This document shows positions 3,213-62,156 of a stretch of 64,000 bases of DNA, piece by piece. Source of the stretch: a virus; the IMG/VR virus record IMGVR_UViG_3300026488_000001, positions 24,756 through 88,755 of that record; one strand, 5' to 3'. The notes under the pieces were generated by a model. It searched no databases. It saw only the letters and a list, made by a program, of their open reading frames with translations, and had not been told where the DNA came from. Made by a program: the position numbers and the translations under genes. Positions within the stretch are counted from its first letter, which is position 1. Each line of letters opens with the position of its first letter.

Positions 3213-5651
3213 ATGGTAGGGATTGAAGTTGTAAAAAGAGACGGTCGTAAAGAACCTTTCAGTATGGATAAGATTATTAAGATGTATAACTTTTGTAGGC
3301 AAGGTTTAAACATAGACAATGAACAATTTTGGAAAGAATTTCGTTTTACTCTTAAGTCTGGTATTACTACTAAAGAAATTCAACAAAATTTAATAGCTAC
3401 TGCTAACAAACTTTCAGTATCAGATAAAGAGAGAATTAAAGATTACTCTATTCTTGCTGGTAGATTTTATTTACTTGATTGGATAAAAGATATAAGGCTA
3501 CATAGAGAAAAAGAGTATGAAACTCTTACTGATGATTATGGGTTTTTTAAGAATGCTAATGATTGGATTAATCACTTGAAGAAGTATGTAGAGTTAGGTG
3601 TTTATGATGAAAGAATACTCAAAATTTCTAATGACATTCTTAGAAAACTCTATGTGTATGCTAAAAAGGTTCAGTTAGATTATGATTATAACTTCCCTTA
3701 CTTTATGTGGAATGATTTTTACTACCAGGTAGTAAAATTTTCAAAATCATATATTTTGACTTATAACAATAAACCAATAGAAACTTTTGCTGAAGCACTC
3801 CTTTTAATTTCTATTCTTGGATTTCTTCCAGACTATAAGCAAAATAAAGAATTATTTATAAACAATGTTAAACTATTTTATAGACTATTACTTGATAGAA
3901 CGATAATTCCAGCTACTCCTCAACTTTCTAACCTTAGAAGAGCTAAAGGTAATTTATCATCTTGTAATATTCTTGATATTCATGATAATCTTGAAAGTAT
4001 TATGTATTCTTTTTGGCAAGTTGCAGAAATTAGTAAAAGAGGAGGAGGATTAGGTATTTATCTTGGAGAGATAAGACCTAATGGAAGTTATATACAAGGG
4101 AATAAAGGTAAATCAGTATCAGTATTAAAGTGGTGCAAAATACTTGATGATATGTTAGATACAATAGATCAGCTTGGAAAACGTAGAGGAGCTGGTACAG
4201 TAGCTCTTCCTATATGGCATATGGATGTATTGGACTTTATGGCTATGCGTAATCCTATTGGTGAAATCAGAATGAAAATGTTTTCCCTTTATCCTCAAGT
4301 AATAATACCAGACTTGTTTATGGAGAGGGTTAAAGAGAATAGGGATTGGACATTAATAGACCATTATGAATTGAAAATAAAATATGATATTGATTTAGTA
4401 AATTGTTGGGGTAAGGAATTTGAGGAGAATTACATAAAAGCAGAAGAGTTAGTTGAACAAGGTAAAGTAAGAGGTAAAGTTTATAAGGCAAGAGAAATTT
4501 ATAGACAATTAATTAAAAATATTCTTGCATCTGGAATGCCGTATCTATTTTTTGTAGATACAGTAAATCAATACTCTCCCTTTAAGGAACAAATTAAATG
4601 TGGAAATCTTTGCGTGGAATCCTATTCCCCATTTTCTAATACAAATCCTGAAGGGAAAAAACCTGATAATAAGATAGATAACATAGGTTATGTTCATTCT
4701 TGCAATTTACTTTCCCTTAATCTACCTGTACTATATGAACGAGGAATTTTGTTTAATAACAACAAGTTAAAACAGGTAATGTCTTTAGTTGTTAGGTATA
4801 TGGATAACATATTAGATATAGCAGGTCATCCTATAAATGAAATTAAAAGACATAACCAAGATTACAGAACTTTAGGAATAGGTTTTGTAGGACTAGCAGA
4901 TTTACTCGTTAGGAAGTCAATAGACGACAATAAGCTGTATGCCTACAGGATAACTAATAGAAATATAAATAGAGATGAGTTGTTTAACTTGCTTAAGCAG
5001 ATATTCGGTAGGATAGCATTCTATTCTATTAGAACTAGTGTAGATTTGGCTAAAGAGAGAGGTAAAGCAAATAAGTGTAATGAAACTAAATGGAGTGAGG
5101 TATTTTTAGGCCAAATCCTATTTGGAGAAGATTTTGAAGTATCTTCTGCTGTTGAATTTGATGTAGATAGAGGTGAAGTTGATGAACTGGTAAAAGATAT
5201 TCAAAAATATGGGATTAGGAATACAATGCTGTTAAATGCTCCTCCCAATACATCAACATCTATCTATGCAGGAACTACTGCAAGTATTTTCCCTCCATTC
5301 AACCTTATCCAGACTGAAAAGCAATCTACTGGAGTTTATGTAGTATTTCCAAGATATATTACAGAAGGTTGGTTTTACTATGATGAGTATTCAAAATTTA
5401 CTGAACAAGATTTGTATGATGTAATTGAGATAGTTTCATTTATCCAAAAATATATAGATTCAGGAATTTCCTTTGATTATCCAATCAACATAAGAGATGG
5501 TTTCATTCCAAAAGAAGAAGTGGGTAGGATATTAGGTCAGTTTATCTATAAAGCTTGGAAAAATGGAATAAAAGCTCTTTACTACGCTAGAATAGTAGCT
5601 AAAGCAGAAGGAGAACAAACTAAAGAAGAGTGTGTAAGTTGTGCAAATTGA
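3213..5651 (+). CDS. nrdA: class I ribonucleotide reductase alpha subunit with N-terminal ATP cone
   Basis: VVKRDGRKE ATP cone; PATP, LSSC, GNLCVE, SCNL, PNTSTS, LYY and C-terminal CxxC (CVSCAN). Confidence 0.95.
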   Translation: MVGIEVVKRDGRKEPFSMDKIIKMYNFCRQGLNIDNEQFWKEFRFTLKSGITTKEIQQNLIATANKLSVSDKERIKDYSILAGRFYLLDWIKDIRLHREKEYETLTDDYGFFKNANDWINHLKKYVELGVYDERILKISNDILRKLYVYAKKVQLDYDYNFPYFMWNDFYYQVVKFSKSYILTYNNKPIETFAEALLLISILGFLPDYKQNKELFINNVKLFYRLLLDRTIIPATPQLSNLRRAKGNLSSCNILDIHDNLESIMYSFWQVAEISKRGGGLGIYLGEIRPNGSYIQGNKGKSVSVLKWCKILDDMLDTIDQLGKRRGAGTVALPIWHMDVLDFMAMRNPIGEIRMKMFSLYPQVIIPDLFMERVKENRDWTLIDHYELKIKYDIDLVNCWGKEFEENYIKAEELVEQGKVRGKVYKAREIYRQLIKNILASGMPYLFFVDTVNQYSPFKEQIKCGNLCVESYSPFSNTNPEGKKPDNKIDNIGYVHSCNLLSLNLPVLYERGILFNNNKLKQVMSLVVRYMDNILDIAGHPINEIKRHNQDYRTLGIGFVGLADLLVRKSIDDNKLYAYRITNRNINRDELFNLLKQIFGRIAFYSIRTSVDLAKERGKANKCNETKWSEVFLGQILFGEDFEVSSAVEFDVDRGEVDELVKDIQKYGIRNTMLLNAPPNTSTSIYAGTTASIFPPFNLIQTEKQSTGVYVVFPRYITEGWFYYDEYSKFTEQDLYDVIEIVSFIQKYIDSGISFDYPINIRDGFIPKEEVGRILGQFIYKAWKNGIKALYYARIVAKAEGEQTKEECVSCAN

Positions 5652-8158: not shown

Positions 8159-8836
8159 ATGAGAGTAGTTCAGATAGCAGGGAGGAAAAGTTCTGGAAAA
8201 ACTTTTCTTTCTGATTTACTCTTTCATTCTTTTTCAAAAGAAGGTTATAGGATTTATAAGATTAGCTTTGCTTCTAAGTTAAAGTTTACACTTAGAAAGT
8301 TGGGTGTATCCAAATCAGGAATAGTAAAAAATTTATCTTTTGAGGATTTTTATTCAAGCTTACAAGATATATTTTTTACTTACTTTCCAAAGTATATAAG
8401 AAGTCGTTTAATAACTCAGACGATTAAATATTTTTATGAGTTAAGAGATGCTTATAACATTTTCTTTATTCAGAAAGATTTTGAGAATGGATTTAGGAAA
8501 TTAGCACAGTTGATAGGAACTGAAATAGTAAGGGAGATAGATGAAGACTTTTGGGTTAAAGAAGTAGTTAGAAGTATAAAACAAGTAGAAAAATGTGTTG
8601 ATTTTGTTTTGATAGATGACTGGCGTTTTCCTAATGAAGATTTAACTAAATATTTTCCTGAACGGAAAGTATTTAGGATTTTACTTGTAACAAAAGATGA
8701 ACAAAAAGATAATCACATTTCTGAAAACCTTGTTAATCAGTTAAGAGTGGATTTAAAAGTAGAAAGGTATGGGGATAAATATAATCCGGATTTTGAAAAG
8801 ATAATTAGGAGGGTTCGAGGTGAGGAATATACTTAG
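8159..8836 (+). CDS. deoxynucleoside monophosphate kinase (T4 gp1-like)
   Basis: P-loop IAGRKSSGKT, SFA, R..Q..GTE..R, DDWRFPNE. Confidence 0.85.
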   Translation: MRVVQIAGRKSSGKTFLSDLLFHSFSKEGYRIYKISFASKLKFTLRKLGVSKSGIVKNLSFEDFYSSLQDIFFTYFPKYIRSRLITQTIKYFYELRDAYNIFFIQKDFENGFRKLAQLIGTEIVREIDEDFWVKEVVRSIKQVEKCVDFVLIDDWRFPNEDLTKYFPERKVFRILLVTKDEQKDNHISENLVNQLRVDLKVERYGDKYNPDFEKIIRRVRGEEYT

Positions 8837-10670
8837 TCTTTTTGACGGTATTTCTTGTGGTAGGTTAGCATTGGATAGAGCTGGAATTAAATATGAAAAA
8901 TATTATGCAAGTGAAATTGATAAATATGCAATAGCGGTAACTAGGTATAATTATCCTGATACAATATTTGTCGGAGACATTAGGAATCTAAAAGGAGAAG
9001 ATTTTAAAGATATAGATTTAATAATGGGAGGAAGTCCTTGTTTTGCTGAAGGAACAAAAGTTTTGACAAAAGAAGGATATAAAAATATTGAAGATATTAA
9101 ACTAAATGATTATGTCTTAACACATAATAAAAGATTTTGTAGAGTACTAGATATAGGTTATAGATATGCTGAGACTTATATTGTAAAAGCTCAAGGAATT
9201 TTATCTATTGAAACAACTTTTAATCACCCATTTTTAGTTAGAGAAATAAGTTGGAAATGGAATAGCAAAAAAAGAACTAAAGAAAGAGTTTGGTCAGAAC
9301 CAAAATGGAAAAATGCGGAGAAGTTAACAAAAAATGATTTTATAGGAATTCCTATAATTGAAATTGAAGAACTAGCATTGTCACTACAGTTAGCAGTAAC
9401 TAAAGTTTATAAAGTTAATAGTTCTATTTATTTCTATAAAAGACCTAATAAGTATATTATTGAAGGAAGAATTGTAAATCAAAATGATACTTATTTTGTT
9501 GAATTTAGAACAGGCAATAGAAAACAGCGAAGAGCAGTAGTTATAGATGGAATAGTTTGGGTTCCTGTAAAAGAAGTAATAAAAACAGGACTATTTAAGA
9601 AAGTTTATAATTTAGAAGTAGAAAACGATAATACATATACAGCTAATAATGTTATTGTTCACAATTGTCAAAATTTTAGTTTTTCTGGTAAAAAGCAAGG
9701 AATGATAACAAAAGAGAAAATAGAAGTAACTACGCTTGAACAATATTTGGAATTAAAGGAACAAGGGTTTGAATTTGAAGGACAATCTTATCTCTTTTGG
9801 GAATTTGTAAGATTATTAAAAGAAATTAAACCTAAATGGTTTTTACTTGAAAATGTTAGAATGGCCAAAAAGTGGAGGGATGTTATTACAAATGCTTTAG
9901 AAGTAGAACCTATTGAAATTAATTCTGCTTTAGTTTCAGCTCAAAATAGAAGAAGGTTATATTGGACTAATATCCCTGTTAAGGGATTACCAAAAGATAA
10001 AGGTATTTTGTTGAAAGATATATTAGAGGATGAAGTTGATGAAAAATATTATCTTGATAAAGGGATAGAAATTTTAAATAAACAGAAAGGAGGTCTTTGT
10101 AAAGAGATTGGTAAACTTGAAATTAAAGGTTTTGATTGTATAAGAAGAGTTTATAGTCCAGAAGGAAAGTCTCCAACATTGATTGCAATGCAAGGAGGTT
10201 ATAGGCAACCTAAAATAATTGAAGAAAAGTATTACCTATCAGAGAAACATTTTAAAGCATTTTTAAAAAGTTATAAAAACTTTAGTTTAGATGATAGAAA
10301 CAGTAAATCTAAACCGTTACTCGCAACTTATTATAAACAACCACCTCATTGCCCTTATATTTTAGATAAGGACAAATCTCTTTGTATGGATGCTTGTTAT
10401 TACAAAGGTGGGAACTTAAAACAATATTTTGAGAAACATAGAAGACAACTTGTTTTTAAAGTTAATGAAGAAAATAAGGTTAGAGTTAGAAGACTTACTC
10501 CTCTTGAATGTGAAAGACTACAAACTCTTCCGGATAATTATACTCAATATGGTTTATTTGATGACGGAAAGATAAGAAAGATTTCAGACACGCAAAGGTA
10601 TAAAATGATAGGGAATGGTTGGACTGTTGATGTAATAGCTTGGATTTTCTCATTTATAAATGATGAATGA
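8820..10670 (+). CDS. C5-cytosine DNA methyltransferase containing an intein
   Basis: LSLFDGISCG, GGSP/C, ENV, QNRRRLYW, RRLTPLECERLQ, GNGW. Confidence 0.92.
   Translation: MRNILSLFDGISCGRLALDRAGIKYEKYYASEIDKYAIAVTRYNYPDTIFVGDIRNLKGEDFKDIDLIMGGSPCFAEGTKVLTKEGYKNIEDIKLNDYVLTHNKRFCRVLDIGYRYAETYIVKAQGILSIETTFNHPFLVREISWKWNSKKRTKERVWSEPKWKNAEKLTKNDFIGIPIIEIEELALSLQLAVTKVYKVNSSIYFYKRPNKYIIEGRIVNQNDTYFVEFRTGNRKQRRAVVIDGIVWVPVKEVIKTGLFKKVYNLEVENDNTYTANNVIVHNCQNFSFSGKKQGMITKEKIEVTTLEQYLELKEQGFEFEGQSYLFWEFVRLLKEIKPKWFLLENVRMAKKWRDVITNALEVEPIEINSALVSAQNRRRLYWTNIPVKGLPKDKGILLKDILEDEVDEKYYLDKGIEILNKQKGGLCKEIGKLEIKGFDCIRRVYSPEGKSPTLIAMQGGYRQPKIIEEKYYLSEKHFKAFLKSYKNFSLDDRNSKSKPLLATYYKQPPHCPYILDKDKSLCMDACYYKGGNLKQYFEKHRRQLVFKVNEENKVRVRRLTPLECERLQTLPDNYTQYGLFDDGKIRKISDTQRYKMIGNGWTVDVIAWIFSFINDE
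9039..9665 (+). mobile_element. 209-aa cis intein inserted at the catalytic Pro-Cys; no intact endonuclease evident
   Basis: CFAEGT start, TTFNHPF block B, VYNLEVENDNTY...IVHN end; +1 residue is the catalytic Cys (SP|CQNFS). Confidence 0.92.
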
Positions 10671-10678
10671 GGTAGATT

Positions 10679-10861
10679 ATGAGTTGTAATCACCAATGGG
10701 AGGAGGTTAAAGTTAAATCAAAACATTACAGATTTTGTCAAACTTGTTTTAAGATTCAGGTTTACGACAATAGATTAGGTTGGAGACTGTTAACAGATTT
10801 GGAAAAAGTAAAATTGATAAAACTCCTGAAAAAGATAATAAGGAGAAGTAAGTATGGGTAA
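10679..10861 (+). CDS. small Cys/His protein
   Basis: CNHQW...CQTC; SD GAGGT. Confidence 0.6.
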   Translation: MSCNHQWEEVKVKSKHYRFCQTCFKIQVYDNRLGWRLLTDLEKVKLIKLLKKIIRRSKYG

Positions 10862-11378
10862 GAACAAATCTAAAAACAAAGGAAAACAATTTGAAGAAAG
10901 AGTAGCTAAAATTTTTAGAGAATGTTGGCATCTTTCAAAGCATGAATGTCACCGTGCTTTATCATCAGGAACTTATCAAGTAGACTATTCAGATATTGTA
11001 TTCTCTCCAGAAACTATTGAAAGACCTCATCTAATAGTAGAATGTAAAAAACGAAAATCTGTTCCTGCTAATCAACTTTTAACTTTTACTTCAGAATTCA
11101 ACAATTGGTTAGAACAGGTAGAAGAAGCATCAGAGAAATACTTTCAGCATTTTCAAGTTTATCCGGTTTCATTAATAGTTTTTGCAGTTAATAATATGAG
11201 ACCGATAGTAATAGTTGACCAAGAATTACTCTCATTAATTCCATCTAAACCAGAATTTAATCTTTATCTGATAAAGCACCCGACTTCATTAAATTTTTAC
11301 ATAGTGAACAATAACTATATAGGAACTTGGCTTGATCTATTTTTAAACGAATGTCTTCAACCCAAGTACAGATATTAG
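10854..11378 (+). CDS. Holliday junction resolvase (Hjc-like PD-(D/E)xK)
   Basis: KGKQFEERVA...SDI...IVECK. Confidence 0.75.
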   Translation: MGKNKSKNKGKQFEERVAKIFRECWHLSKHECHRALSSGTYQVDYSDIVFSPETIERPHLIVECKKRKSVPANQLLTFTSEFNNWLEQVEEASEKYFQHFQVYPVSLIVFAVNNMRPIVIVDQELLSLIPSKPEFNLYLIKHPTSLNFYIVNNNYIGTWLDLFLNECLQPKYRY

Positions 11379-11505
11379 TAATTATGCAATAGTTTTAATC
11401 AAAATTATTATAATTTTAGAAGCTCTATCTATCTAAGTTAAATAGATATTGCTAATATTTAACTAACGAAATCAGACCCTTCTTATGTTTCCCTCCTTCA
11501 CAAAC

Positions 11506-11534
11506 AGGGAGGCTAATTTAGCCTCCCTTTTCTT
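11506..11534 (+). terminator. intrinsic terminator ending the early/middle block
   Basis: AGGGAGGCT-AATTT-AGCCTCCCT followed by a T-rich run. Confidence 0.7.
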
Positions 11535-11546
11535 AAAGAGGTAACT

Positions 11547-12026
11547 ATGAAGAAACCGATAGTGAAAGTTCAAACTGAGCTTGATAAGCAACTAACCAAT
11601 CTTAGAGATTATCTTGAAGGTAATCAAACTGAATTCAAATTAGACCCGGATTTAGATTCACTTAAACTTGAAGTAGCTTCTTTTACAAGGTTAATGATAA
11701 AGAAGTATATGTCCAGATTAATTAAACTAGGAGAAAAACTTGAAACTTTAGAAGATGAATTACTTTCCAATGCTAATTTCTCTAACTTTATAGAACAAGT
11801 AGAATTCTATAATGGTTTAGTTCAAGCCTATAATTCAGTATTCAACAACCTTAAATCCTTAGTACCAATTTTAAAAGAACTTTCCAAGCTATCTCAATCA
11901 GTAGAATTAAGAGTAGTAGAAACTGAAGAAGATTCTTCTATACTAGAACAATTAGAAATAAACCAAGAGACTAGAAACACTCTAAAAGAAATATTAAGTT
12001 CAGTAGTAGAACACTTAGAAGTGTAA
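11547..12026 (+). CDS. putative terminase small subunit
   Basis: Helical coiled-coil protein directly upstream of terL; positional inference only. Confidence 0.45.
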   Translation: MKKPIVKVQTELDKQLTNLRDYLEGNQTEFKLDPDLDSLKLEVASFTRLMIKKYMSRLIKLGEKLETLEDELLSNANFSNFIEQVEFYNGLVQAYNSVFNNLKSLVPILKELSKLSQSVELRVVETEEDSSILEQLEINQETRNTLKEILSSVVEHLEV

Positions 12027-12055
12027 TATATTAATAAACAAAATCCATTTATTAA

Positions 12056-12137
12056 GCTGGGGCAGGGTAGGAGAGCCTGAGCTGGCCACTCAGGTTAAAG
12101 GGATTCCCAGCGTCCCTTCTCCTACCCTGCAAATCCC
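12056..12137 (+). ncRNA. GC-rich three-way-junction structured element
   Basis: 13-bp outer stem 12062-12074/12118-12130 enclosing hairpins 12075-12095 and 12098-12118, whose loops are complementary. Confidence 0.6.
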
Positions 12138-12161
12138 TAACAATCTAAAAAGAGTTCAATA

Positions 12162-12566
12162 ATGCTAAACCAACTAATCAATAAACTAAAAACCTTACCT
12201 CCTAAAGAGAAGTCTATATTAAAGAGATTAATTGAAAAGTTCCAAAATGACCCCCAATCCTTACTCCAATTGTATGCTGAACTTGAAGGTTATAAAGAAG
12301 TACCAGTAGATATAATAACATTTATAGAACACCCTAAATATTTAGGCCTTTCTTTAGGGGGTAAGATATACCCAGTATGGAAAGAAGCTCTAAAAACAAT
12401 TTTCCCTAACCCATTCTACTCTCCTTATTATGAGTGCATCTACACTGGAGCAATAGGGGTTGGGAAATGTCTTGGAAATCAACAACTTATAGAAGTTTAT
12501 ATGAATGAAGAAGATATAAAGAAATATGGATTAGAAGAGTTCATAATAGAGGAAAGCAATGAGTAA
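12162..12566 (+). CDS. terL: terminase large subunit N-terminal fragment fused to 32-aa split-intein N part
   Basis: PVDIITFIEHPKYLG; Walker A GAIGVGK followed directly by CLGNQQLIEV... (Cys codon at 12468). Confidence 0.88.
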   Translation: MLNQLINKLKTLPPKEKSILKRLIEKFQNDPQSLLQLYAELEGYKEVPVDIITFIEHPKYLGLSLGGKIYPVWKEALKTIFPNPFYSPYYECIYTGAIGVGKCLGNQQLIEVYMNEEDIKKYGLEEFIIEESNE

Positions 12567-13533
12567 TCCCAAGATAGTAATAACAGAGTTTAGAAAACCT
12601 ATTATCTTCATTCATACTCTAGATGAGCTTCTTTTCCATCTAAAAGAAAAGACTAAACATTTTACCCACCCTGTTGTTCGTCTTACTCCTGAGATAATTG
12701 AATGGTTTAACTCACTTCAAGAACCTTTTTATGTTCCAAAAGGTAAATATGCTAAATTCCATACAGTAATATGGAAAGAGGTTTATGGTAAAGAGGAGTG
12801 GTTTAGCTCTCAAATAATAAGAGCAAATTTAAATCCATATTACTACTACATTAGGGGTTATACAGAAGATGAGGCTAAGGTTTTAATGGAGGAAATGCGT
12901 AAAAAGAATAGTGAAGGTGTTTCCAAAGCTTTCTCTTCTATGACTCCAGAAGAAAGAAAAGCTAAATTTGGTGTGTTTTCTGATGAATATCTGAAAAAGA
13001 AGTATGGTAAAGAAGAAGGTTATAAGAAGTGGAAAGAAAGGAATGAAAAGTGGGCTAAGACAATGTCCCAAAAAGAGAATGTTATCCCTTATGGTAGGAA
13101 TGATGAGTATATAGGATTTTCTAAAATATCACAACAACTGTTTGATAAGGTTGTTCAAAGGTTAGCTGAGTACTTCCCTATGGGAGTAATGGGAATTCAA
13201 TATGCTACTTTTAAAGAGGGTAAGAAAGTTCAGGCAAAACATTTTATGGAAAATGAGAAAAGATTTGGTACTAAGTTTGTAGACTTTTATGATGAAATAT
13301 CTAATGTTGTAATAGAGTTTGATGGTGCAGAATTCCACGATGATCCTGAAAGAGATTTAAAAAGATTGGAAGTAATTTATAATGCATCAAAAGCTTTTAT
13401 TCTTCGTATTCCAGAGGATTTACCAAGACGAGTAGGATTTGACAAACTTGCTAGAGTGATAGCAGACTACTTAATAAAAGTGAGAAACTATGGCTTTAAA
13501 GAAACTGAGAATTCCAATAGGGTTACTGTTTAA
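12559..13533 (+). CDS. free-standing Vsr/EDxHD-like homing endonuclease
   Basis: C-terminal VDFYD...VIEFDGAEFHD...RD; overlaps both terL halves. Confidence 0.72.
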   Translation: MSNPKIVITEFRKPIIFIHTLDELLFHLKEKTKHFTHPVVRLTPEIIEWFNSLQEPFYVPKGKYAKFHTVIWKEVYGKEEWFSSQIIRANLNPYYYYIRGYTEDEAKVLMEEMRKKNSEGVSKAFSSMTPEERKAKFGVFSDEYLKKKYGKEEGYKKWKERNEKWAKTMSQKENVIPYGRNDEYIGFSKISQQLFDKVVQRLAEYFPMGVMGIQYATFKEGKKVQAKHFMENEKRFGTKFVDFYDEISNVVIEFDGAEFHDDPERDLKRLEVIYNASKAFILRIPEDLPRRVGFDKLARVIADYLIKVRNYGFKETENSNRVTV

Positions 13534-15448
13534 AAAGTTAGGAATAGAACATAACCCTGATAAGGAAGAGCAAGTTCATAACCCTCCTTGCGATGTTTAT
13601 ATTTCTACTCCAGAAAACAACTTGGCTAAAGTAAATTTCTTTGTAACTAAAGAAACTGAAGTATGTGAATATGAATTAGAGAACGGTTCTACTCTTATAA
13701 CCTCAACTAAACATATAGTACTAGAGAATGGAAAAGAAACTTTCATAGATAAAGCTGAGTCAGTAGATAATGTAGATGGTAAGTCTTATAAGATATGTAC
13801 TAAGAGGTATAGAGGCAAAGAGGTAGCTTATGACTTAAGTATAGACTATCCTCACCTTTACATTACTCCTGATGGGTCTATTCATCATAATACTACGATA
13901 GCAAGAATTGTTTTGCTATATGATCTTTATAAACTTCTCTTATTAAGAGATCCTCACAAAAAATTTAACCTAATACCTACTGATAGAATAGTTATAGCTC
14001 TCTTCAACGCTACATTAGGACTAGCTGATCAGGTTTTATATGAACCATTTAAAAACCTAATAGCCAATTCAGAATTTTTCCAAGAACACTTAGATGCTGA
14101 AAATAAGAAAACATCAGAGATTAGGTTTGTTAACAACATAGGTATAGTAGCAGGTTCAAGATTTACTCATACCCTTGGTATGGCTGTATTTGGAGGTTTA
14201 TTAGACGAAGCTAATTTTGATGTAATATCTAATCAAGCTCAGGAAAGTTATAATGCACTTCTTAGAAGAATGGAATCAAGGTTTGCTCAGGCTGGTGGCA
14301 AACTTCCTGGACATCTTTGCCTTGTTTCTTCTGAAAAGAGTCCTACCGATTTTGTTTCTCAACACAGAGAAAAAGTAAGAGGAAAACAAGGAGTAATAAT
14401 CTTTCAATATCCTATATGGGAAGTTAAAAAACATTTAGGTATCTACTCAGGTAAAACCTTCAAAGTATTTATAGGAGATGAAACTACTGATCCATTCATA
14501 ATAGAAGATGAATCTCAACTACAATATATAGATGAAACCAAAGTAATAGATGTTCCAATAGAGTTAAAAGATAAATTTGAACTAGACTTACATAATGCTA
14601 TAAGAGACTTAGCTGGTTATTCAGTAGGTTCAACTCATAGAATTTTTAAATCTAAAAACATACTCATAAAACAAGCATCCGTTATTAACCCTGTTAACCA
14701 ACAGATAATAAGACTTTCCTTTAATGACAAATCAGATGTCTTAATTAACTACTTCAACATAAACTACCTAAAGAACCCACTCTTTAAAGAATGTCCAAGA
14801 GTTATCCATATAGACCTTTCTATAACAGGAGACAGAACAGGTATAGCTTCAGGTTACATAAAAGGTTACAAAACAATAGAAAGAGTTGATCCACTAACCT
14901 TAGAAAAACATATTTTCTCTGAACCAGAAGTAGTTATTGATTTTGTAACCTATATAGAACCTTTACCAGGAGAGAGAATTCCATTTTACAAGATAAGACA
15001 ATTCATAGTAGATTTATCAAGAATAGGTTACCCAGTAGCAATGGTAACTACTGACGGATTCCAATCTGAAGATATGAGACAACAGTTAACTCAAATGGGT
15101 TATAAAACTGCTTTACTATCAGTAGATAGAACTAAAGACCCTTACCTTTCCTTTAGAGATGCTATATATGAAGAAAGAGTTTGGATACCTAAACACGACT
15201 TACTGATTAAAGAACTATTACATGTAGAAGATATAGGTAAGAAGATAGACCATCCTCAAGAGTTTCCTGATGGTACTAAAGGTAGTAAGGATGGTGCTGA
15301 TGCAGTAGTAGGAGTTTACTGGAACTTGGTAACTAATAAAGATTTAATTAAACAATTAGCTTTCCAAAGAATTCATAAAACAGAAGTCAAAGAAGAAGAA
15401 CAAAGGCAAAGTGTAGCAAATCTTTTTTGGAAAGATCAAATAGATTAG
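13490..15448 (+). CDS. terL: 134-aa split-intein C part fused to terminase large subunit C-terminal fragment
   Basis: LITSTKH block B, YDLSID...SIHHN|TT; Walker B LLDEANF; nuclease motifs HIDLS and KDGADAV. Confidence 0.9.
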   Translation: MALKKLRIPIGLLFKKLGIEHNPDKEEQVHNPPCDVYISTPENNLAKVNFFVTKETEVCEYELENGSTLITSTKHIVLENGKETFIDKAESVDNVDGKSYKICTKRYRGKEVAYDLSIDYPHLYITPDGSIHHNTTIARIVLLYDLYKLLLLRDPHKKFNLIPTDRIVIALFNATLGLADQVLYEPFKNLIANSEFFQEHLDAENKKTSEIRFVNNIGIVAGSRFTHTLGMAVFGGLLDEANFDVISNQAQESYNALLRRMESRFAQAGGKLPGHLCLVSSEKSPTDFVSQHREKVRGKQGVIIFQYPIWEVKKHLGIYSGKTFKVFIGDETTDPFIIEDESQLQYIDETKVIDVPIELKDKFELDLHNAIRDLAGYSVGSTHRIFKSKNILIKQASVINPVNQQIIRLSFNDKSDVLINYFNINYLKNPLFKECPRVIHIDLSITGDRTGIASGYIKGYKTIERVDPLTLEKHIFSEPEVVIDFVTYIEPLPGERIPFYKIRQFIVDLSRIGYPVAMVTTDGFQSEDMRQQLTQMGYKTALLSVDRTKDPYLSFRDAIYEERVWIPKHDLLIKELLHVEDIGKKIDHPQEFPDGTKGSKDGADAVVGVYWNLVTNKDLIKQLAFQRIHKTEVKEEEQRQSVANLFWKDQID

Positions 15449-20321: not shown

Positions 20322-20896
20322 TGGGACTTATACAAGAGGTTAATCAATTGTTGGAGAAAGTTAATAAACCAGATCCAAGACAGATAGTAGAAGTTCCGAA
20401 AAGGTTAAGAAGAAAGAATAGAGTAACATTAAAACAGATTTATTTAAATTTCCCTTACTCCGTTTATAAGTACGATCCTATTCCTCCTCAACCTGTAAAG
20501 ATTAGAAGAATAGAACTAACTGAAGATGAATTAGTAATGACTGTTCACGCTTATGTTAAATCTGTTTCAAGACCAGGAAAGTATCATAGTTGTGTTTTAC
20601 AGTTGGCAAGACCGAATACTAATATAGATTGGAATTGGGATTTACCAGTAGCAGTAAGATGTTCTTGTGAGTCTTTTAGATATTTCCTAGCTTATGCTCT
20701 TTACTCTCATGGAGCTTTATTTGGTAGACCATCTCTCTGGAATAAAGTACCTGCTAAAATACGAAATCCTATGAACATCCCTCAAGTATGTTCCCATTTG
20801 TGCTTATTAACTGAATATTTAATCAAACATAAAATAATAAAAGGTAAGGTAATTTGGAATACCCTAAAATATAGGGATGGTGGTAGGAAAAAGTAA
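20321..20896 (+). CDS. leader-bearing SWIM-type zinc-finger protein
   Basis: MGLIQEVNQLLE; CSC...CSH SWIM ligand pattern. Confidence 0.65.
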   Translation: MGLIQEVNQLLEKVNKPDPRQIVEVPKRLRRKNRVTLKQIYLNFPYSVYKYDPIPPQPVKIRRIELTEDELVMTVHAYVKSVSRPGKYHSCVLQLARPNTNIDWNWDLPVAVRCSCESFRYFLAYALYSHGALFGRPSLWNKVPAKIRNPMNIPQVCSHLCLLTEYLIKHKIIKGKVIWNTLKYRDGGRKK

Positions 20897-22299
20897 TGTT
20901 TAAAAACAAACTTTATCAAGATAAAGATTGGCTTTACCACCAATATTGGGAATTAGGTAAATCTACCAGACAGATAGCGAAAGAATTTGGTTATGGTATT
21001 AATACAATAAGAAGGTGGATGGACAAATTTGGAATTCCAAGAAGAAGTGTTGATGAGGGAATTCAGCAAAGATTTAAAGCACCTTACAGGAATAGAGATT
21101 GGTTGTATAATGAGTTAATTATAAAAGGCAAATCAAGAATTCAAGTAGCAAGAGAGTTAGGAGTTAATAGAGAGACTATTGATAAATGGGCAAAGAAGTT
21201 TGAAATAGGTTATCCAGAGAAACTTTACCAGAATAAAGAATGGTTAGAAGAACAATATGTGAAGTTAGGAAAATCAACTATTCAGATAGCAGAAGAATTA
21301 GGAGTTTCTGAAACTGTTATATTAAAGTGGTTAAAGAGATTTGAAATACCGATAAGAAGATGGCATAAGAAAGGAAAGTATACTAACAAAGAATGGCTTT
21401 ATAATGAGTATTATGTTAAAGGAAAATCTATAAAACAAATTGCTGAAGAATGTAATGTAAAACCCTCTTCAGTTAGATATTGGTTTGATAGGTTTGGTTT
21501 TGTATCAAGAGAAAAGTTTAAACCCGTTATTGGAAAAGAGTGGTTATACCAAGAATATGTAATTAGAAAGAAGTCAATGAAAGAAATTGCAAGAGAGTTA
21601 GGAATTCATTATAAAATTGTTTCTAATTTATTAAAACAGTACGATATTCCTATAAGGAATGTAAATGAAGCCGTTTCTTCTGTTTCCAACTTTTATCACA
21701 AACTTTCAGATTATTTTAGACAAGTTCTAGATGGGTCTTTAACTAAACCAAAATCTTTGAACTCTAATTCTTGTTATCAACATACTGATAAACACAAGAA
21801 TTATATAGAATGGCTAAGGCAACAGTTTATTGATGAAAGTTTGGAGTGTGGTAAAATTTATGAAAAGGAATATAAAAAATTAAATGCTAAAGCATATTGT
21901 TTCTCTACAAGAAGATATCCTTGCTTAACAGAACAATATTATAGATGGTATTCAGATAGTAAAAAGATAATACCAGATGATTTAAAACTTACTCCAACAG
22001 TTGTTCTTCATTGGTATATTGGTGATGGGAGTCTAATTAAACCATCAAAAGGTAAACCTTTCATCCATTTCGCTACCAACTGTTTTACTTTTGAAGAGGT
22101 TAACTTTTTGGTAGATCAACTTAATGAACTTGGACTAAAAGCATATTTAAGAACTGGAACTGAATACAGAACAAAAAGGAAATTTCCTTATATAGTTTTA
22201 TCAGTAAAATCAACTTTGGATTTCTTTGATTTTATAGGTTCTTGTCCAGAACCAATTAAACAAGACTATAATTATAAATGGGAATTAATTAACCTATAA
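20896..22299 (+). CDS. LAGLIDADG homing-endonuclease-like protein with five tandem HTH repeats
   Basis: Five KxWLY..Y...GKS..QIA.E.G repeats, then LDGSL and HWYIGDGS. Confidence 0.78.
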   Translation: MFKNKLYQDKDWLYHQYWELGKSTRQIAKEFGYGINTIRRWMDKFGIPRRSVDEGIQQRFKAPYRNRDWLYNELIIKGKSRIQVARELGVNRETIDKWAKKFEIGYPEKLYQNKEWLEEQYVKLGKSTIQIAEELGVSETVILKWLKRFEIPIRRWHKKGKYTNKEWLYNEYYVKGKSIKQIAEECNVKPSSVRYWFDRFGFVSREKFKPVIGKEWLYQEYVIRKKSMKEIARELGIHYKIVSNLLKQYDIPIRNVNEAVSSVSNFYHKLSDYFRQVLDGSLTKPKSLNSNSCYQHTDKHKNYIEWLRQQFIDESLECGKIYEKEYKKLNAKAYCFSTRRYPCLTEQYYRWYSDSKKIIPDDLKLTPTVVLHWYIGDGSLIKPSKGKPFIHFATNCFTFEEVNFLVDQLNELGLKAYLRTGTEYRTKRKFPYIVLSVKSTLDFFDFIGSCPEPIKQDYNYKWELINL

Positions 22300-25024: not shown

Positions 25025-26410
25025 ATGAGCGAACTCGTTATTGAAAAGAAACTCAGAGAAGTAGAATACCAAGCTGAAGATTATCTCAAAAGGTATCGTG
25101 AACAAGTAGAAACTCTTGAATCTGCAACTTTCCTTGGAAAAGTAAGGGGAGTTCAGGCTTGGGACGTAGTTCAGCTCGGTAAGCAACTTGAAAAGTGGGA
25201 AATGCTTGAATCTATGGTTAAAGAAGATGGTGGACTTGCATCTCTTGGTGCACTTCCCAAAGTAGCTTTTGATGTTATCACAGTTGCTTACGGAAACTCT
25301 GTAATTCCTTTCATAGCTTCTGTTCAAAACATTGAAGAAGAAAGAGGAAATGTTTACTTCAAAGTAATTAAAAGACAAGATACAGGAAATACTATTATTG
25401 ATCCTAGAACTGGAGCTGTTCTTCCAAGTGGACTTGCTTCCAATGTAGTTTCTGATAAAGTAGTTGCTACTGGAGATGGTTCTACAACTACTTTCAATGT
25501 TACTCTTGATTCTATCCCTGTAAGACCTGAAACTTTTGAAGTTAAAGCAGGTTCTGCTTATGGTAAGGACGATGGAAAAGGAACAATTCTTGGTGTAGGT
25601 GTATGGGGAACGATTGACTACTCCACAGGAGCTGTGGAACTCAACTTTGCTTCTGCACCTGCTTCTGGTGAAGAAATTAAGGTTGGATATCAAGTAGATA
25701 TAGAAGGTGCTAATGATCTTCCTTCTATTGGTTCTGTATTTGAATCTATACCTGTTACAGCAAGGATTTATGCTCTTAAGGGAGTAGTAGGACTTCTCCA
25801 ATCTTATGCCCTCAGGCAAAGGTTTGGAATTGTAGCTGAGGATGAACTTGCTAAAGACCTTGTAGTTGCCATTAACAATGAGATTGGTGGTGACCTTATC
25901 AGGAAGATGAATGCTAATCCTGCTGGTGGGACAATTACTTGGGATAAAACTCCTCCTTCTGGAGTAAGCTACTTTGAACATAAGCAAACAATTAAAGACA
26001 GCCTTGCTGATCTTGAAGGAAAGATTGTTAGCAATGCAGGTAGGGGAGTTATTAATGTTATCATAGCAGGTGCTAAAGTTGCTGCTATTCTTTCTACACT
26101 ACCTGGATTTGAAAAGGTAGCTGATGGTAAAGCTATGGGTGCTCATGTATTTGGAACTCTTGATGGTGTAACTGTTATCAGGGTTAATGATGCTAATGCT
26201 CTTCCTGGTAATGTAGCACTCGGTATTTACAACCCTGATAATCCGTTTGAGGGTGCTGCTGTTTATGCTCCTTATATGCCTCTTACAACAACTGAGCTTA
26301 TTCCACTTTCACCTAATCCATTGACAAATCAGAAAGCTGCTGCTGTATGGGCAGGTGTAGAAGTTCTTGTTCCTCAGTTTGTAGGTAAACTTAATGTTCA
26401 AAATGCTTAA
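25025..26410 (+). CDS. major capsid protein (T4 gp23-like) with a beta-rich insertion
   Basis: IASVQ...GNVYF, VTARIYALK, AINNEI and YAPYMPL correspond to gp23 blocks; strong SD. Confidence 0.88.
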   Translation: MSELVIEKKLREVEYQAEDYLKRYREQVETLESATFLGKVRGVQAWDVVQLGKQLEKWEMLESMVKEDGGLASLGALPKVAFDVITVAYGNSVIPFIASVQNIEEERGNVYFKVIKRQDTGNTIIDPRTGAVLPSGLASNVVSDKVVATGDGSTTTFNVTLDSIPVRPETFEVKAGSAYGKDDGKGTILGVGVWGTIDYSTGAVELNFASAPASGEEIKVGYQVDIEGANDLPSIGSVFESIPVTARIYALKGVVGLLQSYALRQRFGIVAEDELAKDLVVAINNEIGGDLIRKMNANPAGGTITWDKTPPSGVSYFEHKQTIKDSLADLEGKIVSNAGRGVINVIIAGAKVAAILSTLPGFEKVADGKAMGAHVFGTLDGVTVIRVNDANALPGNVALGIYNPDNPFEGAAVYAPYMPLTTTELIPLSPNPLTNQKAAAVWAGVEVLVPQFVGKLNVQNA

Positions 26411-26413
26411 TAT

Positions 26414-26497
26414 AACATAGTAAAGTATTTGCTATGTTCGGTAGGAGTCCTCTGGCCAAGGTAATAACCTTGTTATGCTGGGGGACTCCTACTTTTA
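26414..26497 (+). terminator. tandem hairpins/terminator after the capsid gene
   Basis: Hairpin 26414-26438, then a long bulged stem GTAGGAGTCC...GGACTCCTAC followed by TTTT. Confidence 0.65.
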
Positions 26498-62118: not shown

Positions 62119-62156
62119 TAACCCCCTGTTACCTTCTAGAAGGTAACAGGGGGTTA
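62119..62156. repeat. perfect 38-bp palindrome
   Basis: TAACCCCCTGTTACCTTCT|AGAAGGTAACAGGGGGTTA. Confidence 0.9.

Follow-up and report, generated by a model that had tools for sequence, protein, structure and literature searches.

A candidate structured RNA element upstream of the large terminase gene in a small lineage of hydrothermal-vent phages

Introduction

The intercistronic RNase III sites of T7 (e.g., R18.5), which are single irregular hairpins with an internal loop, and the 5' stabiliser hairpins of Bacillus and SP82 define mRNA ends and stabilise the adjoining cistron. The phi29 pRNA is a separate transcript of 120-174 nt that comes from the genome end of small phi29-like podoviruses and carries two complementary loops, and the antitermination RNA EAR is found between cistrons, near the beginning of a long operon. 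At the level of DNA, the cohesive-end or pac regions of AT-rich phages are typically GC-rich islands near the terminase genes. Candidate structured RNAs (csRNAs) have been reported directly upstream of large-terminase genes in IMG/VR phages; 14 of these motifs lie upstream of psiM2_ORF9-type terminases and are presumed to be cis-regulatory, their function being predicted (PMC10690425). Here, we describe a GC-rich, Y-shaped element that lies before the large terminase gene (terL) of a vent phage, and we weigh what it may be.

Results

The locus and its genomic setting

The window, by which we mean the whole stretch of 64,000 nucleotides analysed here, comprises bases 24756-88755 of a complete 88.7-kb virus record (G000), whose DNA was found in hydrothermal-vent metagenome runs from several studies, with no RNA run among those listed. 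From position 32 to 57058 of the window nearly every sizeable ORF lies on the plus strand. The 'direct terminal repeat' given for the record is an exact overlap of 77 bp, the size of an assembler k-mer, and such overlaps are a typical artefact when a circular or permuted genome is assembled from k-mers; the record therefore gives no information on the physical genome termini. The features around the element are collected in Table 1.

A sequence-only reading of this DNA had described the element as lying between the terminase genes. The downstream gene is indeed the N-terminal piece of TerL; the upstream 159-aa ORF matched none of the terminase small subunit families, so that it is 'terS' by position only. 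Over residues 1-102, which end at the Walker A motif GAIGVGK, the TerL piece is 94% identical to the same residues of the intact 621-aa TerL of a relative (L002), and the insertion of ~1.4 kb in the window's terL is absent from L002 and from a second relative, L003. The element ends 31 nt before the terL start codon. On the plus strand of 12027-12161 we found no ATG, GTG or TTG, which excludes a leader peptide in this spacer. The intrinsic terminator on the other side of the terS-position ORF lies 18 nt upstream of it and has an equivalent hairpin in a third relative (L004, at 4319-4342); given this terminator, the packaging genes seem to need read-through or antitermination to be expressed.

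Table 1. Features of the terL locus in window coordinates
Feature	Position	Strand	Details
C-5 cytosine DNA methyltransferase with intein	8820-10670		Pfam Intein_splicing, Hint_2 and Hom_end_hint at residues ~73-282
PDDEXK/RusA-like nuclease	10854-11378		
Canonical intrinsic terminator	11506-11528	+	10-bp hairpin AGGGAGGCTAATTTAGCCTCCCT, then TTTCTT
159-aa helical ORF, terS position	11547-12026	+	Without family assignment
Spacer between terS-position gene and terL	12027-12161		135 nt, contains the element
AT-rich spacer upstream of the element	12027-12055	+	41-43% identity, with indels, to relatives
5' flank GCTGGG	12056-12061	+	Candidate pseudoknot strand, complement of L3 CCCAGC (12106-12111)
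P1 5' arm GCAGGGTAGGAGA	12062-12074	+	13 nt
P2 hairpin	12075-12095	+	7-bp stem 12075-12081/12089-12095, GCCTGAG/CTCAGGT, closing G.T (G.U)
L2 loop CTGGCCA	12082-12088	+	7 nt; C/U-UGGCCA across three sequences
J2/3 (TAA)	12096-12098	+	Sole unpaired strand at the junction
P3 hairpin	12099-12117	+	6-7 bp stem; 12099-12104/12112-12117, AGGGAT/GTCCCT, top pair T.G
L3 loop TCCCAGC	12105-12111	+	7 nt
P1 3' arm TCTCCTACCCTGC	12118-12130	+	13 nt
terL leader, A-rich, mostly unpaired	12131-12161	+	Shine-Dalgarno-like AAGAG at 12150-12154
TerL N-terminal piece	12162-12566	+	Residues 1-102 plus a 32-aa tail
324-aa ORF, other frame	12559-13533		Weak DUF559 endonuclease-like match
Remainder of TerL	13490-15448		ORF residues 135-652 = residues 103-621 of the intact L002 TerL

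Predicted fold of the element

Folding of 12040-12150 with RNAfold gave, as both the MFE and the centroid structure, a Y-shaped three-way junction at 12062-12130 (-45.2 kcal/mol; z = -4.2, with 1 of 200 dinucleotide shuffles equally stable), and the same Y shape was recovered independently by RNAalifold on three sequences. The predicted fold of the 69-nt core was unchanged from 37 to 85°C and retained -9.5 kcal/mol at 85°C. In base composition, the element is the 60-nt GC maximum not only of the 64-kb window but of the entire 88,755-bp genome (63% against a median of 32%; genome GC: 31%). The two arms of P1 form a 100% complementary inverted repeat with 43 nt between them, and coaxial stacking of P1 on P2 or on P3 gives 19-20 bp.

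Most of this architecture had been proposed by the sequence-only reading, whose P1, P2, L2, TGGCCA palindrome and absent U-tail were all borne out when we re-read the sequence; its P3, given as AAGGGA/TCCCTT, is the same helix one pair over and in that register competes with P1 for T12118. Two tertiary contacts had also been put forward. Pairing of the 5' flank with L3 in a pseudoknot gained support, as the two strands are complementary in the window and a G-C pair is replaced by a compensated A-U pair in relatives (duplex energies: -10.1 and -8.4 kcal/mol); the 5' flank of the element is probably tied to L3 by a 6-bp helix, which, with linkers of 0-2 nt, would suit only a geometry like that of kissing loops. 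Kissing of L2 with L3 fared less well: the 4-bp complementarity of L2 CTGG to L3 CCAG is present in the window, but a C-to-U change weakens it to a U.G pair in the relatives. The TGGCCA palindrome of L2 could also pair with itself (self-duplex: -9.1 kcal/mol).

Conservation and compensated pairs

A TerL search of IMG/VR provided relatives for comparison (L002, L003, L004, L005 and ~75 loci at no more than 41% identity). In L002 (record G001) and L003 (record G002), TerL is uninterrupted and 93% identical to that of the window, and the element is found at the same place. Between the window and these two relatives the element is 90-91% identical and the leader stretch 12138-12161 is 92-96% identical, in comparison to 64-78% identity at third codon positions of the flanking genes; at third-position rates, the probability of 8 or fewer differences in 83 columns is P = 2e-3 to 4e-8.

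Six of the 8 substituted columns make up three compensated pairs, one each in P1, P3 and the flank-L3 pairing. At 12065/12127 in P1, the window has G-C, L003 has G-U and L002 has A-U; at the top of P3, U.G of the window corresponds to G-C of the relatives; and the flank-L3 strands GCUGGG/CCCAGC of the window read ACUGGG/CCCAGU in the relatives (G12056 to A, partner C to U). The last of these was read off the alignment, in which MAFFT sets the partner one column apart, so that the covariation tool omits it. When 8 substitutions were placed at random, at least 3 doubly hit pairs arose with P about 4e-4. The covariation tool's own shuffle control (111/500) was not significant, a control that is weak because it had only three full sequences, all closely related; each compensated pair, in this sample of three close relatives, is a single event. 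The L2 palindrome UGGCCA is invariant in 3 of 3 sequences, and the sole substitution in L2 falls at the only non-palindromic position of the loop.

The wobble pairs carry information about the strand. The G20.U40 pair is present in the window and in L002 (its partner column is a gap in L003), and this pair, the U.G of P3 and the G-U of P1 in L003 are wobbles on the plus strand that would be A.C mismatches on the minus strand. Since such pairs are workable on the plus (sense) strand only, they favour an RNA over a duplex or cruciform DNA site. Conservation above the neutral level together with compensatory changes, the generic marks of a conserved structured RNA, were both seen among the three sequences and argue that the element is one; conservation and covariation in relatives had been named beforehand as a check on the sequence-only reading, and the two relatives show 90-91% identity and three compensated pairs.

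Relatives with and without the element

L004 (record G003) encodes a TerL that is 81% identical to the window's and 86% identical to that of L002, and an upstream protein that is 72% identical, and yet it is without the element: only 3 nt separate the stop of the upstream ORF from the terL start. As a relative with an 86% identical TerL does without it, the element is not essential to this terminase. A covariance model (R1) that was built from the window and the two element-bearing relatives, and run against 80 terL loci and the full records of four relatives, matched only the window, G001 and G002; there was no match in the ~75 more distant terL loci or anywhere in the G003 record (58.8 kb, 66% complete). 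The L005 locus is truncated upstream. No GC island preceded terL in the AT-rich distant loci, and in about half of the distant loci the upstream gap was <25 nt.

Contigs carrying the element were found in the vent runs X2, X3, X4 and X6. Those of X2, X3 and X6 are of the L002/L003 type, and the X4 contig belongs to a ~89%-identical lineage in which the element is retained, with no indel inside it among the differences listed. A scan of the upstream-protein alignment against metagenomes and IMG/VR returned the three known contigs only; the proteins P0003 and P0004 are 76% identical to the upstream protein. The element probably arose or was kept only in this small phage lineage.

Database, pattern and class tests

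Rfam searches at the gathering score gave no match in the whole window or in the first 26 kb of the genome, and at E<=10 the region 11950-12250 returned six chance-level miRNA/lncRNA matches, none of them to pRNA (RF00044); the Rfam search that had been suggested for this element thus yielded no family, even at this permissive threshold. With blastn, 11500-13000 had no match in 50,697 phage records. The pattern GCCTGAGNTGGCCACTCAGG recovered the same two relatives from IMG/VR. Its matches among 185,579 prokaryote genomes, in two GC-rich MAG contigs of Gammaproteobacteria and to the P2 hairpin alone, were dismissed as chance, as were the two extra IMG/VR contigs, both GC-rich coding sequence, that matched the pattern TCCCAG N1-4 TCCCTTCTCCTACC. 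The element is single-copy in the genome, its flanks hold no direct repeat and the matches to the scanned patterns outside the clade are chance ones, all of which speaks against a mobile element.

Several known classes gained no support. An intrinsic terminator is excluded, as P1 is followed by AAATCCCTAAC with no U-tract, and the terminator scan calls only 11506-11528 in the region; bona fide terminators of this phage carry T-runs. A terminator on the minus strand is unlikely, with no T-run beside the stem and no minus-strand gene nearby. ARAGORN found no tRNA in the window, and a tRNA-like element was rejected for want of a cloverleaf by ARAGORN and of a UUC-type T-loop in L3 of the relatives. 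None of the small self-cleaving ribozyme families (hammerhead, twister, pistol, hatchet, HDV-like) matched, and the 3 unpaired nt at the junction leave no strands that resemble a catalytic core; the suggestion of a ribozyme-like element is therefore unsupported. The Shine-Dalgarno (SD) sequence and AUG of terL had unpaired probabilities of 0.48-0.84 at 37 and 65°C, and a riboswitch or thermometer is unsupported, as no alternative fold occludes the SD/AUG or forms a terminator. The recurring AAATCCATTTA of the upstream spacer was considered as a promoter motif and discarded, its other copies being intracoding and in mixed orientation.

Other structured and selfish features of the genome

Directly behind the gene for the major head protein (25025-26410, phrog_138) there is a long hairpin at 26440-26492 (-37.4 kcal/mol, z -6.3), with TTTT after it. 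At this position G001, G002 and G003 have a plain short hairpin, the extended version being specific to this genome, and from the sequences an exchange between this hairpin and the terL element is possible. A perfect 19+19-nt palindrome (TAACCCCCTGTTACCTTCT/AGAAGGTAACAGGGGGTTA) at 62119-62156 separates a minus-strand gene from a plus-strand one and ranks with the most stable folds at 75°C.

Outside the window, the minus strand encodes a 444-aa TnpB (G000:C1 19190-20625; L099 1190-2625) with matches to OrfB_IS605 (6e-27) and Cas12f1-like TNB (9e-14). The next two GC-rich islands of the genome flank this gene: one of ~150 nt covers its 3' end and the other, upstream, is a hairpin, GCGGTC...GACCGC. 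Their positions suggest an omega-RNA (3') and an element-end hairpin (upstream), and no Rfam family matched at either island; if this reading is true, GC-rich islands are a sign of structured nucleic acid in the genome of this phage. Within the head module, a 467-aa ORF (20896-22299) has strong matches to HNH, LAGLIDADG homing-endonuclease and DNA-binding PHROG families and, judged by these matches, is another selfish element. Palindromic tetramers are strongly avoided in the genome (observed/expected: GCGC, 2/53; GATC, 85/256; GGCC, 19/53). Nine of the 19 GGCC sites lie within TGGCCA, and three of these are in a repeated intergenic unit (genome positions 21707, 62427 and 63968).

Discussion

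A cis-acting element of the terL leader

Judged from sequence comparison, we put at about even the chance that the element is a cis-acting, plus-strand RNA element of the terL leader. A leader regulating terL was among the options offered by the sequence-only reading, and it is the one that best fits the data, with a conserved, compensated fold and an open ribosome site. The structure, the open leader and terL's own SD are conserved together and are inserted where a relative couples the two genes, which is what leads us to a cis-acting module of the late mRNA.

As a thermostable structured domain of the sense RNA in the spacer between the terS-position gene and terL, the element would act in cis on the late message. 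The lineage would in this way uncouple terL from the upstream gene, which L004, with its 3-nt gap, would couple translationally, and the level of TerL could then be set independently of the upstream protein. A nuclease-proof, base-paired structure would head the terL segment: cleavage may occur in the upstream spacer, which as an AU-rich and freely evolving stretch would be a natural endonuclease target, or RNase III may cut the stack of P1 on P2, which is 20 bp long. The resulting terL mRNA would begin with paired first nucleotides, which the pseudoknot would bury, and be shielded from 5'-end-dependent decay. At ~20 bp, or about two turns of dsRNA, P1+P2 or P1+P3 falls in the size class of RNase III substrates, where cleavage is a prediction only, and the sequence contains no specific pointer to cleavage by RNase III, E or J. 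That the element is transcribed and processed and stabilises its message is what we infer; the specific processing and stability mechanism is the likeliest that we see for such an element, but is put forward tentatively, as possible rather than probable.

Alternative explanations

The compensated inverted repeats could instead preserve a symmetric protein-binding site in DNA. The nested GC-rich repeats would then be a pac or cos recognition or cleavage site that is bound by the small terminase, perhaps as an extruded hairpin or cruciform, and we consider this unlikely. Such a site would be expected where the element is, adjoining terL and the gene in the terS position; the genome, given its k-mer overlap of 77 bp, may be permuted or of the cos type; and symmetric half-sites would likewise evolve by paired changes. 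The three G.T pairs of the plus strand, however, correspond to A.C on the other strand and are disfavoured in a cruciform or symmetric duplex, and the compensated flank-L3 pairing lacks the inverted-repeat symmetry by which a dimer could read it. The element is also absent from G003, at the junction and elsewhere in that partial record, in spite of the similarity of its TerL and upstream protein, and the contigs of G001 and G002 continue across it. Of the pac-associated DNA structure that the sequence-only reading had entertained, the position beside terL is thus what fits, and the strand-specific G.U/G.T pairs are what speaks against it.

Two further explanations seem to us improbable, and to a similar degree. 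One is a processive antitermination RNA, akin to HK022 put or EAR, that would read polymerase through the terminators of the ~45-kb plus-strand late array. The element is a compact, stable and autonomous fold, and the co-directional array near whose start it lies is very long, with a strong intrinsic terminator inside it at 26440-26492 and another shortly ahead of the terS-position gene. This support is positional only, however: there is no Rfam similarity to known antitermination RNAs, the element lies downstream and not upstream of the first terminator (11506-11528), and L004 has equivalent terminators without the element.

The other is a selfish or neutral insertion without dedicated function: a mobile element of miniature size and palindromic build, or a terminator hairpin that was duplicated or has decayed. 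Compared with L004, the 135-nt spacer is an indel, and the short gaps in about half of the distant terL loci agree with an insertion; the 13-bp arms resemble terminal inverted repeats, selfish elements abound in the genome (inteins, homing endonucleases and the TnpB element), and the hairpin at 26440-26492 has GGTAGGAG, CTGGCCA, GCTGGGG and CTCCTAC in common with the element. Against this, there is one copy in the genome, the two IMG/VR pattern scans and the 185,579 prokaryote genomes gave matches in the same clade or by chance, no target-site duplication is present at the element ends, and conservation well above that of synonymous sites with compensated changes points to purifying selection and is unexpected of neutral DNA.

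Quite improbable, in our estimate, is a new class of thermostable, pseudoknotted Y-shaped RNA that is freed from the late transcript and serves either as a trans RNA, which would dimerise through UGGCCA and be the counterpart of pRNA for a TerL-type motor, acting on its terminase or prohead, or as a mechanical block to a 5'-3' exoribonuclease. In the latter version the flank-L3 pseudoknot would hide the 5' end, and the element would be a bacterial counterpart of the viral exoribonuclease-resistant RNAs.

We regard as very unlikely a trans-acting small RNA that oligomerises via the L2 palindrome and acts on the packaging motor like phi29 pRNA, which the sequence-only reading had raised. In its favour are a three-way junction of ~70-80 nt beside terL and the sequence UGGCCA, which fills L2, is unchanged in all three sequences and can form a self-duplex. 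No match to pRNA or another Rfam family appears even when E<=10 is allowed; the element is placed within the operon, before terL, with no promoter or terminator to delimit a discrete small RNA; a close relative whose motor is nearly identical (86% identical TerL) lacks it, as do ~75 terL loci; this phage encodes a classical TerL, with a gene in the terS position, in place of the gp16 system of the phi29 type; and TGGCCA is common elsewhere, at 9 of the 19 GGCC sites of the genome. A packaging RNA of the phi29 type is not supported.

Least likely of all is a ligand- or temperature-sensing switch on terL translation (a tuning fork like that of purine riboswitches, or an RNA thermometer), for which P2 and P3 of ~7 bp each with 7-nt loops able to kiss and the position 31 nt 5' of the start codon could be cited, but whose junction has only 3 unpaired nt and so no ligand pocket, whose SD/AUG is open at 37 and 65°C with a constant fold from 37 to 85°C, and which has neither a terminator platform nor a match to a riboswitch family.

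Comparison with known systems

The P2 and P3 helices of ~7 bp and the mutually complementary 7-nt loops are shared with the purine riboswitch aptamer; the element differs in a junction that leaves almost nothing unpaired, in the lack of an expression platform and in a loop-loop pairing that is not kept in relatives. HK022 put and Bacillus EAR are, like the cis-acting leader element proposed here, compact folds of the nascent RNA that act in cis early in long operons, but there is no homology to them, the architecture is another (put consists of two stem-loops) and the element lies downstream of the first terminator. With phi29 pRNA the element has in common a three-way junction linked to packaging and loops capable of intermolecular pairing. 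It differs from pRNA in being intra-operon, in an 88.7-kb phage with a classical TerL, in having one palindromic loop and in being dispensable in a close relative; it provides no evidence that pRNA-like packaging RNAs occur beyond the phi29 group and reveals no new principle.

Closer to the reading as a cis-acting terL leader element are the RNase III sites of T7 and the stabilisers of Bacillus and SP82, which are likewise stable intercistronic structures in long polycistronic phage RNAs. In comparison to the T7 sites, the element is a three-way junction with a pseudoknot, and its cleavage is proposed by analogy only. Relative to curated families it is probably a new RNA element, confined so far to one small lineage of vent phages, and it offers a case for RNA structure built for vent temperatures in a genome of 31% GC.

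The csRNAs resemble the element in being conserved intergenic structures immediately 5' of terL that were found by comparative analysis of uncultivated phage contigs (PMC10690425). The element ends 31 nt from the start codon, outside the 25-nt criterion of that study, and is known from three contigs. Since bulk predictions of structured RNAs upstream of terL exist (PMC10690425), the kind of element is already known. None of those predicted has a known function; the present one is small and clean, has compensated changes in its helices and in its pseudoknot, and comes with a natural control in a close relative that has the same two genes head to tail without it. The clean fold and the element-less relative thus make this locus a convenient case for studying how phages adjust the amount of packaging ATPase separately from that of its partner.
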